From assembly GCA_051117555.1 (NCBI GenBank), contig JBNPEG010000006.1:10996-74995 (forward strand): a DNA stretch of 64,000 nucleotides, in the 5' to 3' direction. Below are positions 1,670 through 60,991 of the stretch, piece by piece. A program made the position numbers and the translations under genes. The notes under the pieces are model-generated. The model saw only the letters and a program-made list of their open reading frames with translations. It did not search any database and was not told the origin of the DNA. The stretch's first letter is position 1. Each line of letters starts with the position of its first letter. The DNA comes from Elainellaceae cyanobacterium. GTDB taxonomy: Bacteria > Cyanobacteriota > Cyanobacteriia > CAZCXK01.

Positions 1670-3316
1670 ATGCGGAGAGTTGAGTTAAATAGGTCACTGC
1701 TGGTGCGCCAATTTACCACAATTGCGGGATTATGTCGCTATCTGGAACTGCATCGGTTCCAGTCAGATGCGAATTTTGAACAGGGAGGTGATCGCCAGGA
1801 TGCCTCTCACCGTCAGCAAACAGTCGGCCTAGTGCCGACAATGGGCGCGCTGCACGCAGGGCATGTCAGCCTAATTCGACGGGCACGGTTAGAAAATCAT
1901 CTCGTGGTTGTGAGTATTTTTGTTAATCCTTTGCAGTTTGCCCCCAACGAAGATCTGCAGCGATATCCTCGAACTCCGGAGCACGATCATCAGCTATGTG
2001 CTAACGAGAAAGTCGATGTTATTTTTACGCCGACCCCGGCAGAGCTGTATGGCACCTCTGATATATCAAATCGCGATCGCCTCACCCAGGTTATCCCGCC
2101 TGCTGAGATGATGGCGGTTTTATGCGGCCGGAGTCGTCCCGGTCATTTTCAGGGCGTTGCAACGGTCGTCACTAAGTTGCTGTCAATCGTGCAGCCTGAT
2201 CGGGCTTATTTTGGTCAAAAGGATGCTCAACAGCTCGCGATTTTGCAACGACTTGTTCATGATTTGAATATTCCAGTCGAAATCGTGCCGTGCTCGATTA
2301 TTCGAAACGAGTCAGGACTGGCGTTGAGTTCTCGCAACGACTATCTTACTGCTGAAGAAAAAGAGCGCGCTGCGGTTATTCCCCGCAGCCTAAATCAGGC
2401 TAAACGCATATTTTCTCAGGGGGTTCGCGATCGCTCAGGTTTGCTCAATGGGGTGAAAATGGAACTTTCCTCAGAGCCTACCGTCCGGGTAGATTATGTG
2501 AATTTAGTTCACCCTCAAACACTGGCTCCATTGGAGCAAATTGATGAATCAGGGTTGCTGGCGATCGCTGTGTATCTAGGCTCTACTCGCTTAATTGATA
2601 ACATTGTGTTACGCAACCGCAGACCCGTCATCGCAATTGACGGCCCCGCAGGAGCAGGCAAATCGACCGTGGCTCGACTTGTCGCCCGCAAGCTCGATCT
2701 CCTCTATCTAGATTCTGGCGCGATGTATCGAGCCGTTACCTGGCTGGCGTTAAAGTCTGGGCTTGATTGCCATGACGAACCCGGCATCGCAGAATTAACG
2801 AGCCAATGCCACATCCAGATTGCTCAAGGAGAACCTGAGCCCGATAGTCCATTGCCGGGTCTGTGCCGGGTTTGGGTCAATGGGCACGATGTAACTCACG
2901 ATATTCGTAGTGCTGATGTCACAGCTTATGTGTCGGCGATCGCCGCTCAACCCGCTGTTCGGGAAGAACTCGTAAAACAGCAGCAATATTATGGCCGTGA
3001 GGGAGGAGTCGTTATGGACGGTCGTGATATTGGTACTCACGTCTTTCCTCATGCAGAATTAAAAATTTATCTCACTGCCTCGGTCCAGGAGAGAGCTCGC
3101 CGTCGTCAGCAAGACTTGAAAGATTTGGGCCAGCCAGATGAAAGTTTAGAAGACCTCGAACGCACAATCTACCAACGAGACTATCGAGACAGTACTCGGG
3201 CGATCGCCCCGCTTCGTAAAGCGCCTGATGCGGTCGAAATTGAAACCGATACGCTTTCAATTGATGAGGTGGTAGATACAATTATCGAGCTGTATGCGTC
3301 GCGCTGTCATCATTGA
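1670..3316 (+). CDS. panC: bifunctional pantoate--beta-alanine ligase (PanC) / cytidylate kinase (Cmk) fusion protein
   Basis: N-terminal half has the PanC motif VPTMGALHAGHVSLIRRAR and QKDAQQLAILQ. C-terminal half has the Cmk P-loop IAIDGPAGAGKSTVARLVARKLDLLYLDSGAMYRAVT. PanC-Cmk fusion is characteristic of cyanobacteria. True start may be downstream of 1670, because a ~55-aa leader before VPTMG is unusually long. Confidence 0.9.
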   Translation: MRRVELNRSLLVRQFTTIAGLCRYLELHRFQSDANFEQGGDRQDASHRQQTVGLVPTMGALHAGHVSLIRRARLENHLVVVSIFVNPLQFAPNEDLQRYPRTPEHDHQLCANEKVDVIFTPTPAELYGTSDISNRDRLTQVIPPAEMMAVLCGRSRPGHFQGVATVVTKLLSIVQPDRAYFGQKDAQQLAILQRLVHDLNIPVEIVPCSIIRNESGLALSSRNDYLTAEEKERAAVIPRSLNQAKRIFSQGVRDRSGLLNGVKMELSSEPTVRVDYVNLVHPQTLAPLEQIDESGLLAIAVYLGSTRLIDNIVLRNRRPVIAIDGPAGAGKSTVARLVARKLDLLYLDSGAMYRAVTWLALKSGLDCHDEPGIAELTSQCHIQIAQGEPEPDSPLPGLCRVWVNGHDVTHDIRSADVTAYVSAIAAQPAVREELVKQQQYYGREGGVVMDGRDIGTHVFPHAELKIYLTASVQERARRRQQDLKDLGQPDESLEDLERTIYQRDYRDSTRAIAPLRKAPDAVEIETDTLSIDEVVDTIIELYASRCHH

Positions 3317-4963
3317 TTACAAGTCATACAAACTCACAAATGAGGTGGGAACGTTACTCTTGAAGGAGTCAACTTTCTGGCCGATTTTATCTAGATGAGA
3401 TATGACAAATTCGGTCTCGTCTCGCAGCCGAGAATCGGAGACTAAAAACCAAACTCTAGGTTCGCCCTTGAATTGATTAATATCATTTCGATACCCAACT
3501 TTCTCATCTTGGGTTGATATTGTCTGGGTGAGATCATCGTCTAAATCGATGCCGATTTTATATTCATCCGGTGTGAAACCATACCGAGCGGCATAGTATC
3601 TAAACTGAAACTTTCCTTTTTGAAACACATAGATCTCATCACCAGGTTGATGATGATCTCGGACATAATCCATGACAGGTTTAATGTTTTCAAGCATGTA
3701 AGGCTTTACTAAAAATAAGCACCCTTCTACCACGGGAAAGCCTAGGATAAAGATTGCAATTAAACCACTTGCTAGCGCGCTTTTGACGCGGACGCTTTCT
3801 AGAATATTTGTCAATCCTTTGACGAGGAGAATGATAAAGAAAGGAGCCAAGAATAGTACTAATCGATTATCAAACGGGTATTGGTGAAGATATCCGGCTA
3901 GGAGCGTTAATAGGGCAGGAGTTATTAACGAAAAGAGATGAACTCGCTGATGTTTAAATAGCGAGATGCAGCCAATTAAGAACATCAAACCTGCGAGTTC
4001 ACTAATGACAGGCGGGAAGCCTAACGGTTTATAGAAGAAAAGGCGCGTTGCGTCAAAAAACCAGCCCCCATCCCACGGCGATTCAGGAAACTCATTTGAC
4101 CACGTAAAGGGTAGGAACTTGTTGCTGCGAATATCAGCCAACGAAATTAGGTAAAAAGCGATAAAGCTACTCAGCCAGATACCATAAATGCCTAGCCTCT
4201 GACCGATTTGATCTGGCGCAATTTGATCTGGTGAAATTTGATCTGGCGCAATTTGGCTCTCTTGACGGGTCGTTAGAGACCTTTTTAGATACCTTTGTAG
4301 ATCTGAGATTAGATAAACAAGCTCAACCCCGGCAAGAATAAACACCACAGGATGTGAAAACCAAATGGCGATCGCTCCCACTAGACCTGTCCATATAGTT
4401 CGAGCTGGGGTCAATGCCTGAGTGTGGCTATGGAGTAACACCCAAAACATGACTAACCCAATTGCTACATCACTCGCGTATTGTTTGGTTTCTGATGCGT
4501 AATAGACCAAATATTGGTTGCTTGAAAATAAAGCTAGAGCGAATAATGTTCCTCTTTTATTAAGATAAAATCTCGCTAGCCGATAAAAAATAAAAAGCGA
4601 AAAAATTGACACCAGCAGCGGAAATAATCTCAGTGCATACTCATTATTTCCAAACAGTTGAACAGCTAGTTTCTCAACCATCAGAAAACCAACAGGTGCT
4701 GCTTGGTCATAGTCAAGCGGCTGTAAGAAATCGAGATAGGAACTGTTCACAATATTGAGAGCAATTTTAGCCTCATCTGCCCAGAGTGAACGGTTATAGA
4801 GATACTGAACCAGCCGAATTAAAATCCCGAAGCCAATGATTATAATTACCCATTTTCTAAACGGGATTCTCAAACCTTTTTTAAGCATAAAACCTGCAAT
4901 TATATCGTTCCTAAATCGCTTGTGAATTGTGTGTGAGGGTGGGACGGTTGGCGATCGCCCCAC
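3317..4963 (-). CDS. polytopic membrane glycosyltransferase, family 39 / ArnT-PMT-like (undecaprenyl/dolichyl-phosphate sugar transferase family)
   Basis: Many predicted TM helices. First periplasmic loop has the SLWADEAKIALN (DE-x-x-A) motif typical of GT39/GT83 (ArnT/PMT). Overall topology resembles ArnT-like proteins. Real start may be the internal MLKKGL. Confidence 0.55.
   Translation of the reverse strand: MGRSPTVPPSHTIHKRFRNDIIAGFMLKKGLRIPFRKWVIIIIGFGILIRLVQYLYNRSLWADEAKIALNIVNSSYLDFLQPLDYDQAAPVGFLMVEKLAVQLFGNNEYALRLFPLLVSIFSLFIFYRLARFYLNKRGTLFALALFSSNQYLVYYASETKQYASDVAIGLVMFWVLLHSHTQALTPARTIWTGLVGAIAIWFSHPVVFILAGVELVYLISDLQRYLKRSLTTRQESQIAPDQISPDQIAPDQIGQRLGIYGIWLSSFIAFYLISLADIRSNKFLPFTWSNEFPESPWDGGWFFDATRLFFYKPLGFPPVISELAGLMFLIGCISLFKHQRVHLFSLITPALLTLLAGYLHQYPFDNRLVLFLAPFFIILLVKGLTNILESVRVKSALASGLIAIFILGFPVVEGCLFLVKPYMLENIKPVMDYVRDHHQPGDEIYVFQKGKFQFRYYAARYGFTPDEYKIGIDLDDDLTQTISTQDEKVGYRNDINQFKGEPRVWFLVSDSRLRDETEFVISHLDKIGQKVDSFKSNVPTSFVSLYDL
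4206..4256. repeat. in-frame 15-bp tandem repeat (x3.4) inside the GT39-like gene, encoding (PDQIA/S) repeats
   Basis: Read directly: atttgatctggcgca / atttgatctggtgaa / atttgatctggcgca / atttgg. Translated on the minus strand as QISPDQIAPDQIAPDQIG. Confidence 0.8.
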
Positions 4964-5001
4964 CCCTCACACCCCATCTGGGATTGCTATAGAACGTTAG
5001 T

Positions 5002-15863: not shown

Positions 15864-16162
15864 TGTTTAATCGAAGCGTATTGCCCGAGAGCTAACCCTT
15901 GTCCGCGTCTAATGACTGTAGTTTTCCTCAAAGAAATGTAAGCTTCAAGCCAACTATAATCTAGACCGATCTTGGCAGTGAACTCCGCTGAATTCTATCG
16001 TTAAACTCTACACGGTTAAATTACCCTGTGTTTACGCTATCAATCTGCTGTCGACAATTCAACGGATATTGATGAGTTCATTAGTTTACTCTAACTGAGA
16101 GTGATGATCTTAACTGCATTCATGATTTTTTAGGGATGATTTTTTGGGACTGATATAGATAT

Positions 16163-16420
16163 TGATATATAGCAATCACAGGATATGTAGCAATCACAGA
16201 TGCGTTGTGAGCGGTGGGGCGGTCGGCGTATGCGTCTAGCGCATGTGTGAGATCCCCCGCTGACGCTGCCCGAAAAAGGGGGCATTTACAGGTCGTTGAA
16301 GTCCCCCTTTTCAAGGGGGATTTAGGGGGATCTCTAGGGCGTTACGCTAAATACATACCGGTCGGCGACCGCCCCACCGCTCACACACAATTTACAAGCA
16401 ATTTAAGGATCGCTATATAG
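16163..16420. repeat. foldback / MITE-like dispersed palindromic element (copy A, full length)
   Basis: Long imperfect palindrome. Inner TIRs tgtgagcggtggggcggtc (16206-16224) and gaccgccccaccgctcaca (16367-16385). Outer ends atatagcaatc ... gatcgctatat. The interior is rich in ccccc/ggggg hairpins. Related copies at 60802-60875 and 42100-42270. Confidence 0.5.
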
Positions 16421-16555
16421 AGATTGTGCGATCGCATCAGATGGATCGTTCTGGTGTATAAAGAGAATCTATATGTTAAGCCGTCCAAAGTCATCAAGCG
16501 CTGACCTGTTTAACATCATCAAAGGACTTACATTAGAATCATCGAGGACTAGAGA

Positions 16556-25760: not shown

Positions 25761-26599
25761 AAGACTATCTAGAATCGCCTATAACGCTGAAACTACTCCG
25801 ACAGTGATCTGATGATTGGTTTTGGTTAAAGAAGACATCGAACAAAAGCGCTATGCTCGTCAAAAAACTTAGGATTTTAAATCCTGCTCAAATCTGAGGC
25901 TCTAAAGGCTAGATTAAGCAGAAAATCTATACCGTTGAATTTCCCTTATAAGAGAGACTATTACACAGCGCCCTCAGGGACAATAGTAATCCTCTGATAA
26001 GCGCCTACTTCAGGTATCAAGGCTGTAATGTCAGCCCCTTTAAGGTTGAATGCCTCTTGCTGAGCACCTATGATCCAACGTCGCAGCCTATTTCTAAACC
26101 CGAGCCGCCTAATGATAAGCAAAAATGTCGCTTGAAAGTAAGCTACCGTTAAGGACCGACCCCAATCGACAAACTCACAATACGAGTGTAGAAATCTTAT
26201 AGAAAGTATTGTGATCTGACAATCCCTGAACCTTAATCAAGAAACTAGCCTCTCTGGACTGATGTTCTTGTTAGCTGGAATTCTTAACACTTAGACATTG
26301 ATATTAAACCAGCCTAAGCCCCTTCGTTACTCATTATGCTCTCTGAGTTAACAGCGAGATGTTGGCTCACTTTCTTCATTATGAAGTTAAACACTCGAAT
26401 TGATGGGTGACTTAACAAGAAAAATGGCCCCTCAGGTCATTGTTTCTTGATAATCTCCCGAACGTTGCAACAATCACGACTAAAACTGACTGTGTAGATC
26501 AATCACCCCCAAACTCCGCTAAAAAATCTTACCCGTCCGGACTCGTATTGACCATACTAGTAATACTCTTGGAGTTTCTCAATTGACTGGCTCAATTAA

Positions 26600-41887: not shown

Positions 41888-42099
41888 GCACTAAAAACAG
41901 AATTCAGATATGCATCAGCAATCTAATTGTGAGCGATAGGGCTACCAAATCATTCATGAAATGGAAGTGCGGGAAGCTTGCCTGCCTTAGCAAAGCCTTT
42001 CCGTCAGGAGGAGTAAAATACTAATGCTATGCATTGAAAAGCGTTGGCGTAGCCTTGCCACAGGCAAAACGCACTAGTACAAGACAGCGGAAGTTTCAT

Positions 42100-42270
42100 A
42101 ACCATAGTGTGAGCGTCTCGCTCACATCGCGGGCAAAATGCTCGCACTCTTATAGGGTTGGCTTATTTTTGCCAAACAGTACTAGAGATTTTCACACATC
42201 ATTGGGATTGCCACATTAAATTCGACAAGAATAGGCTTGCCGAAATTCACAAGCAATTTAGGACCGCTAT
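42100..42270. repeat. degenerate copy of the foldback/MITE-like family (copy B)
   Basis: Starts gtgtgagcgtctcgctcaca (hairpin). Ends attcacaagcaatttaggaccgctatat, matching the tail of copies A and C. Confidence 0.35.
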
Positions 42271-42779
42271 ATCTTAGCTAATTGACTCAAGAAAATTTAA
42301 CAGATGCAGTTTGAAGGAGTGCGTTCGGCATATGAGATAAAACATTTATATGAAGTAAAAAGTAAGAAAAATTAGAAATTAATAGGACGATCCCGAACTG
42401 TTCTAAAATAGGAGTGCAGACCTGGCCACGTTAGCAAAACCTTTCTGCTAAGAGAAATAAGACGCCAATACTATGCATCGCTTGAGCGATCGCACTAGAG
42501 ATTCAGACAATTCATTTGGGGTGGCTTCCTAATCCACTAAGCACCCATTTCTTCGTAGAAATAAGCTAAGAAACATGGATTAAATAGTCTGTTAAATTGT
42601 CATATTTTCAGGAGCACAGCATGACGTGCTCTTACCCAGGAAAATCTTATATTAATAAATTTTCATTCTCAAGTTCGTAAATCAGACACTTAAGCGGCGA
42701 TAAGTTTTGAGTGTATTAAAGATTTTTAGAGTGTCATTCTAGGCAAAATCAACCCACCCGAAAATTTTTCCTGCTCTAC

Positions 42780-60747: not shown

Positions 60748-60801
60748 AGTTCAAATTTTCCTCTCATCGTTCTTGAGAATGATATAGCAATCCCAGATGG
60801 G

Positions 60802-60875
60802 GTGTGAGCGGTGGGGCCGGCAACGTCCGCCCCACCGCTCACACACAATTCACAAGCGATTTAGGATCGCTATAT
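60802..60875. repeat. foldback/MITE-like family, short copy C
   Basis: gtgtgagcggtgggg-ccggcaacgtccg-ccccaccgctcacac followed by aattcacaagcgatttaggatcgctatat, and preceded by gatatagcaatc. Lies in the divergent promoter region between 60747 and 60992. Confidence 0.5.
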
Positions 60876-60991
60876 TAACGCCTGGAGTGCGCGTTTGAAA
60901 TATCCTTAATTTGATTAAGGATGTCAGGAAATTAGGTGTCTGCAAACCTCCTGAACGTAGAATGGCTGTTGTTTTCTAAGAAGGCAAGTTT

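Follow-up and report, generated by a model that had tools for sequence, protein, structure and literature searches.

A long foldback palindrome in an Elainellaceae cyanobacterium is very probably a composite copy of a TA-inserting MITE family

What is the long imperfect palindrome that repeat analysis places at positions 16164-16421 of the 64,000-nucleotide stretch of Elainellaceae DNA analysed here (the window), and is its layered architecture intrinsic to it? The original prediction described a palindrome of about 250 bp with inner arms and outer ends, and both were confirmed as arms of 23 nt and 12 nt, respectively. We consider it highly probable that the feature is a copy of a non-autonomous DNA transposon (a MITE, here called family A) that is specific to a narrow Elainellaceae lineage. 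The copy owes its length to a 130-nt element seated in its hairpin loop with a 9-bp duplication, and to a tandemly duplicated left terminus.

The canonical unit of family A is 88 nt long (TAGCAATCC…GGATCGCTA). It has terminal inverted repeats of 9 nt (left TAGCAATCC, right GGATCGCTA), a GC-rich hairpin of 19-21 bp at its centre and a tail of 30 nt that is asymmetric; with the flanking TA included on both sides, the consensus reads TATAGCAATCCCAGATGGGTTGTGAGCGGTGGGGCGGGCGnCGCCCGCCCCACCGCTCACACACAATTCACAAGCGATTTAGGATCGCTATA. The window holds three full copies and one fragment:

4903-4989, minus strand: family-A copy with TA at 4990-4991 and 4901-4902 (arm, tail and profile matches).
16170-16415, plus strand: composite long family-A copy, TAGCAATCAC…GGATCGCTA (sequence, repeats and profile matches).
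42243-42271, plus strand: solo family-A tail, a remnant (model positions 65-92; tail pattern and profile).
60785-60872, plus strand: canonical 88-nt family-A copy (profile match over model positions 1-92, 93 bits).

The canonical copy, with its TA target-site duplication at 60783-60784 and 60873-60874, had been taken for a short hairpin-only version at 60802-60875; it is in fact a complete element with TA on each side. The earlier count of three copies in the window was right in that the family is multicopy there, and missed the copy at 4903-4989 on the minus strand. The tail match at 4900-4929 (minus strand) belongs to the latter copy, whose stem carries a compensatory C>G / G>C change and whose tail ends in TATAAT just upstream of the ATG of the next gene at about 4888. 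What had been read as a degenerate version at 42100-42270 does contain a family-A tail, the remainder being something else: a mosaic spanning 42067-42272 joins the solo tail to an inverted head remnant and to a different repeat (42067-42186).

These matches stand well above expectation. The 15-nt arm core TGTGAGCGGTGGGGC has four exact matches in the window, arranged as two inverted pairs, one per element, and eight matches at up to three mismatches against 1.05 expected, a number reached by none of 100 shuffles. The degenerate 30-nt tail pattern, also at up to three mismatches, matches three times (4900, 42243 and 60846) against 0 expected. A tail motif had been described as common to the long copy and the loci at 42243 and 60846. 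It is found directly at the latter two; the long copy has one extra base in its tail, so that an ungapped 30-nt search misses it, and is recognized through the 19-nt core AATTYACAAGCRATTTARG at about 16389.

The genomic setting is that of an ordinary chromosome, as Pfam scans of the 46 window ORFs revealed adk, gyrA, rpsL-rpsG-fusA-tuf-rpsJ, glutamate synthase and psb28 among others. We note in passing a tRNA gene at 51595-51668 (minus strand), just downstream of a 558-aa ORF (51719-53395, minus strand) with an RNase_H_2 domain (PF13482), and, at 1670-3316, an ORF in which pantoate-beta-alanine ligase and cytidylate kinase are fused (panC-cmk), a fusion common in cyanobacteria.

Beyond the window, an nhmmer profile of the family gave 82 non-overlapping matches in the related loci and the window together, of which 48 are full-length with usable flanks and form the basis of the flank statistics given below. 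Counted at 20 bits or more over about 470 kb (the window and three related genomes), the family comprises approximately 56 full and 23 partial copies. Mean pairwise identity among copies is 0.87, and different genomes carry identical copies. The further copies to be looked for if the palindrome belonged to a repeat family are thus present, by the dozen, in related Elainellaceae genomes. Most were retrieved via the tail pattern and the very high conservation of the tail in the alignment is therefore partly an artefact; copies found by the profile alone differ from the tail at one to four positions.

The distribution of the family is narrow. In a scan for the 19-nt tail core that sampled one genome per species, nearly all of the cyanobacterial matches listed fall in two Elainellaceae MAGs, JBNPEB01 and DBGGTD01, with one diverged copy, among the matches listed, in a third (JBARXP01). 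Matches to the core in Bacteroidota, Bacillota and other phyla show no family resemblance past the 19-mer and were not recovered by the profile, the sole exception outside the family being locus L056, a marginal tail-only profile match of 15 bits. No copy was present in 437 kb from more distant cyanobacteria whose M50 peptidase orthologue is 57-68% identical, and neither a plasmid collection nor viral contigs gave a match; in the loci searched, family A was seen only in Elainellaceae. Those more distant cyanobacteria, at 57-68% identity, were all that a metagenome scan with the M50 peptidase neighbouring the long copy returned, and they were unusable for empty-site comparison. The closest relationships are much tighter, the window being about 89-91% identical in DNA to JBNPEB01 along a syntenic stretch, and a neighbouring protein being 100% identical to an NCBI entry of an Elainellaceae MAG (locus tag ACFE0J_01400).

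Four orthologous sites were informative as to whether these sequences move:

Canonical window copy: filled site GAGAATGA-TA-(TAGCAATCC…GGATCGCTA)-TA-TTAACG; empty site in L165, GAGAATGA-TA-TTAACG; exact 2-bp TA duplication around 88 nt.
Copy in L040: filled in L040, empty in L017; compatible with a TA duplication.
Long copy at 16170-16415: filled in the window, empty in L162 and L163; filled minus empty equals the element plus 4.
Copy in L014: filled in L014 (at a contig end), empty in the window at about 26460-26480; presence or absence only.

A search for target-site duplications at the element ends, put forward with the original prediction as a check, thus gave a clear answer, exact for L165 against the window and fitting for L017 against L040. 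The long copy is absent from the M50-peptidase/adk intergenic region of L162 and L163 (adk 92-93% identical), the empty site in L162 reading CAGA-TATA-GAGATCG. On each side of the long copy the window has two TA units, the inner ones at 16168-16169 and 16416-16417, and the (TA)n region at this site varies between relatives; the four additional nucleotides represent either a TA duplication plus a one-unit (TA)n difference or a duplication of TATA. A 4-bp TATA duplication was rejected as a general rule in that most copies are without the third TA unit in their flanks. Two further pairs of sites, L019 with L024 and window 20.8-21.0 kb with L014, could not be read because of divergence or rearrangement.

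The flanks of the 48 full copies define the target further. The base before TA is A or C in 41 of them (p ~6e-7) and the base after it T or G in 42 (p ~1e-7), preferences which together describe the palindromic target (A/C)TA(T/G). Family A inserts at the TA within this sequence and duplicates it, an outcome formally the same as non-duplicating insertion beside TA if the element ended in an extra TA. Every testable site differs between genomes that are about 90% identical, which indicates activity of the family after the divergence of these lineages.

One asymmetry between the inverted repeats deserves mention. At columns 7 and 88 of alignment A5 (window 60789 and 60868) the repeats carry a conserved A/G difference: the left repeat has A in 100% of copies at column 7, and the right repeat has C in 89% at column 88, its complement G being the equivalent repeat position. 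A GATC site is confined to the right repeat as a result of this conserved mismatch; to link it with methylation control of transposition is speculative.

How, then, did the copy at 16170-16415 come to span nearly 250 nt? Its parts are as follows:

16164-16199, plus strand: left junction and terminus duplicated in tandem, 18 nt (GATATATAGCAATCACAG / GATATGTAGCAATCACAG; direct repeat D1, 94% identity).
16206-16228, plus strand: left arm of the family-A central hairpin (inverted repeat I1).
16229-16358, no strand assigned: element of another family, 130 nt long and nested in the first (direct repeat D6; inverted repeats I3, I4 and I6).
16363-16385, plus strand: right arm of the family-A central hairpin (inverted repeat I1).

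Profile matches to the long copy cover model positions 3-48 and 35-92. The hairpin arms, of 23 nt each, are 96% complementary and 134 nt apart with the nested element between them, along with several smaller inverted repeats, and the 12-nt outer arms (TATATAGCAATC / GATCGCTATATA) lie at 16166-16177 and 16408-16419. The nested element has imperfect terminal inverted repeats of its own (TATGyrTyTAGCG…GAGATCCCCC), CCCCC/GGGGG hairpins in its interior and a 9-bp direct repeat, CGGTCGGCG, that brackets it at 16220-16228 and 16359-16367. Removing the insert and one copy of this repeat restores the uninterrupted centre GGGGCGGTCGGCGACCGCCCC, as found in L010, and the long copy derives from the family-A subfamily with this centre. 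The long copy is thus one MITE inside another: the nested inverted repeats previously described are there, and they reflect a second element inserted in the hairpin loop as opposed to an intrinsic two-layer design. As single-stranded DNA the long copy folds at -65.9 kcal/mol (z = -9.0 against shuffles), and the canonical short copy at -30.2 kcal/mol (z = -8.1). The long copy contains no ORFs other than mechanical ones, 51-68 aa in length; the two listed at 16120-16314 (minus strand) and 16214-16420 (plus strand), of 64 and 68 aa, are among these, and the earlier judgement that they are spurious holds.

Sequences related to the nested element occur in L057, L050, L053 and L078. At L057 2824-2968, a truncated family-A copy has a nested element of this kind, inverted, within its hairpin loop, which could reflect an independent loop insertion or an inversion by recombination between the hairpin arms. 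Tandem duplications of 11-18 nt, comprising a family-A terminus and its flank, were likewise seen in at least six copies (window 16164-16199, L014 at about 60-100 and the right flanks of L019, L034, L045 and L047); they may be footprints of slippage or aborted transposition.

Other repeats share the neighbourhood of family A. The repeat at 42067-42186 has CTAGTAC…GTACTAG ends and a small hairpin, TGTGAGCG-tct-CGCTCACA, which shares the base of the family-A stem; it recurs in L010 1865-1942 (93.6%), L078 and L036. In L036, a repeat of this type is fused directly to a family-A-like tail, suggestive of modular exchange between repeat families. A second MITE family (B), a sister family with the layout of family A, is represented in the window at 49360-49449, with TA at 49358-49359 and 49450-49451. 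Its inverted repeats begin TAGACCTACGG…, its hairpin at the centre reads GTGTGGTGAGCCCCCG…CGGGGGCTCACCACAC, and TA flanks it at either end; about 30 matches were obtained in Elainellaceae loci; a clean TA duplication is seen between L040 (filled) and L017 (empty, GAGGC-TA-TGTTTTC). In the same pair of loci, compared over L017 4080-4340 and L040 3820-4060, L017 has a family-A copy with a degenerate head where L040 has only TAGCGATCCTAAGG, perhaps the footprint of a deletion that took place between end sequences in direct repeat. About 30 nt from this site, L040 alone has a family-B copy.

The central hairpin is where family A departs somewhat from expectation. In an alignment of 47 copies (45 distinct), 12 of the 19 pairs of the central helix have changed on both sides and 93.8% of cells are paired; the outer helix is paired at 94.4% over the 45 distinct copies. 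Over the whole structure, 13 pairs have changed on both sides against 5.1 ± 1.6 in shuffles, none of 500 shuffles reached the observed values, and slid controls fell to 31-46% paired. Cells overcount events here, since a G-C to A-T double change at one pair, found in 11 copies, marks a subfamily that has spread; 12 different pairs are nevertheless involved. RNA made from one strand would tolerate only G·U mismatches, whereas the stem contains G·T and A·C mismatches in equal measure (27 and 29), and a strand-specific RNA structure was rejected on this ground. With no strand favoured, the constraint or process would act at the DNA level, which points to a DNA palindrome and not an RNA gene. Complementarity might be kept by selection for transposition or stability, or by one-step quasipalindrome correction; such correction by template switching during replication is a known mutational mechanism. 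At gathering threshold, Rfam 15 gave no family at the element (only a tRNA elsewhere in the window passed), and lenient Rfam searches returned nothing or generic hairpin matches far below threshold. An intrinsic (Rho-independent) terminator was also discarded as a candidate: the hairpin runs into ACACAATTCAC on one strand and into AACCCATCTGG on the opposite one, neither being a T-tract, and a terminator scan found none at the central hairpin.

Could the family nonetheless be kept for what it does to neighbouring genes, as a mobile promoter, transcript-stabilising hairpin or small-RNA gene selected by the host at particular genes? The tail offers a starting point for this idea:

60849-60876, plus strand: putative sigma-70-like site in the tail of the canonical copy (consensus scan 10/12; a pattern match), TTCACA, 16 nt, TATATT, the last two bases coming from the flank.

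By this pattern (TTCACA, 16 nt, TATA plus two flanking bases) some copies may supply an outward promoter, as Correia elements of Neisseria do in practice (PMC10969869). A complete TAnnnT -10 box is present in only 13 of the 48 copies. Full copies were found between divergent genes (14), between tandem genes with the tail towards the downstream gene (13) or in the opposite orientation (6), and between convergent genes (6); divergent contexts outnumber convergent ones and 27 of 39 tails point at the start of a gene, as a regulatory role would have it, but none of the orientation or context contrasts is significant (p = 0.12-0.17; tandem 13 versus 6, p = 0.17). All tested sites are, moreover, polymorphic between close relatives, the hairpin has neither a T-tract nor a preferred strand, and Rfam is silent. 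We therefore regard a host regulatory cassette as very improbable, and the structured regulatory repeat that the original prediction had kept as an alternative finds no support as the primary nature of sequences that lie in all orientations to genes. Its other proposal, a non-autonomous mobile element of a MITE-like foldback family, is the one that dozens of copies, the TA duplication and the empty sites of L162 and L163 bear out.

A non-autonomous mobile element need not, in principle, move by a double-stranded route. A single-strand, hairpin-dependent element of the IS200/IS605 (PATE) or REP/REPIN-RAYT kind would be inserted beside TA without duplication by a Y1/HUH transposase that recognizes its folded central hairpin, and several properties of family A would suit it: the hairpin, 12 of whose 19 pairs have compensatory changes, is strongly maintained, REPIN stems show compensatory substitutions, the constant TA at both ends also fits insertion 3' of TA by an element ending in TA, and neither the inverted-repeat search nor the IS630 motif search disclosed a DDE partner. 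The termini of family A are true inverted repeats, however, the palindromic flank preference is that expected for symmetric recognition of a double-stranded target, the empty sites fit the element plus TA, and the 46 window ORFs include no Y1 or RAYT gene; mobilization of this kind is improbable in our estimation. That the palindromes are chance occurrences or artefacts of assembly is a possibility with next to no weight. It is true that the related genomes were assembled from metagenomes and that L014 and L032 have copies at the ends of contigs, but motif counts are far above those of shuffles, dozens of copies have unique flanks in independent assemblies, and the insertion junctions are precise.

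Family A is best placed among the bacterial MITEs. Its members are small and non-coding, with terminal inverted repeats, a target-site duplication and many dispersed copies with unrelated flanks, and, as in MITEs derived from IS630 / Tc1-mariner elements, insertion is at TA with a 2-bp TA duplication in a symmetric NTAN context. The TA duplication and the symmetric, palindromic target alone point to an IS630/Tc1-mariner-type transposase, which would be supplied in trans. Searches for its source covered several kinds of signature. Pfam scans of the 46 window ORFs revealed no transposase; the window and 410 kb of related loci contained no autonomous IS with matching inverted repeats; inverted-repeat searches upstream of solo tails, and the ORFs neighbouring them, gave host genes only; and self-BLAST for inverted repeats 0.6-3.5 kb apart returned only pairs of MITEs. 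An apparent 1.36-kb repeat pair in L007 was set aside on finding that it encloses an ORF read by eye as a class I aldolase. An approximate IS630 motif pattern had no match in 1.07 Mb, and none came from the plasmid collection.

A bolder reading, which we think unlikely, is that the hairpin is selected as functionally required and is no mutational by-product of a palindrome, families A and B being mobilized via a folded intermediate or acting at the level of RNA or DNA structure, and that the tail is a portable cassette of a -35 and a partial -10 box. Were this true, the cassette would rewire genes downstream of (A/C)TA(T/G) sites and family A would be a cyanobacterial counterpart of the Correia promoter elements. 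Returning to family A as a MITE, several practical consequences follow from its description. The palindromes of about 90 nt in these genomes should be masked as repeats, and the two ORFs within the long copy disregarded as spurious. Copies of the family break metagenome assemblies, as seen from those at the contig ends of L014 and L032. A recently active family provides strain-level markers and introduces variation into promoter regions, here in a cyanobacterial family that has been little studied, and the compensatory evolution of the hairpin, together with the recurrent nested and terminal rearrangements, makes a natural data set on the maintenance of palindromic repeats.

A literature search found no paper linking Elainellaceae with transposable elements, and family A appears to be undescribed while belonging to a well-known kind, the TA-ended bacterial MITEs such as RUP and Correia. 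It poses no challenge to the current understanding of MITEs; all that is mildly unusual is that compensatory changes clearly maintain the central hairpin and that no transposase was found. REPINs (paired REP sequences mobilized by RAYT) resemble family A in being hairpin-forming repeats of about 100 nt, but are without the transposon-type terminal inverted repeats and target duplication that family A has. Bacterial MITEs are generally shorter than 200 bp and mostly have terminal inverted repeats, with 5'-TA-3' at their termini and target duplications (PMC2229807). RUP of Streptococcus pneumoniae (107 bp, 108 copies, insertion at TA, attributed to IS630-Spn1) is like family A a non-coding MITE of about 100 nt with 9-bp inverted repeats, its hundred or so copies being intergenic (PMC2229807). 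An IS630-family transposase is believed to move RUP in trans (PMC2229807), and the partner IS of RUP is known from matching inverted repeats, whereas the partner of family A was not found; the two share no sequence relationship, their hosts belong to different phyla, and family A has a long, perfect GC-rich central hairpin.

The Correia elements of Neisseria (also NEMIS or CREE) are, like family A, foldback sequences, of about 105-155 bp, that end in TA TAG… and duplicate TA, with 107 bp at the filled site against a mobile unit of 105 bp (PMC2229807). They occur in a long and a short form, distinguished by an internal segment, carry promoters at their ends and have no known cognate transposase (PMC2229807, PMC10969869). 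Their inverted repeats, of about 24-26 bp, are longer than the 9 nt of family A, and their long form contains a family-specific internal module where that of family A results from a foreign nested insertion. The promoters, IHF site and RNase III processing of Correia elements are established by experiment. Cyanobacteria are themselves rich in MITEs (Nezha, MaeMITEs) and in IS630-family elements (PMC3184786, PMC2779907). Nezha of Anabaena and Nostoc, with an ISNpu3-like partner, and MaeMITEa-h of Microcystis are abundant, small, intergenic inverted-repeat elements (PMC3184786, PMC2779907), which by their descriptions are set apart from family A in size (130-435 bp against 88 nt) and host (Nostocales or Microcystis against Elainellaceae). 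As is the case here for family A, the recent mobility of Nezha was deduced from the comparison of filled and empty sites (PMC3184786).
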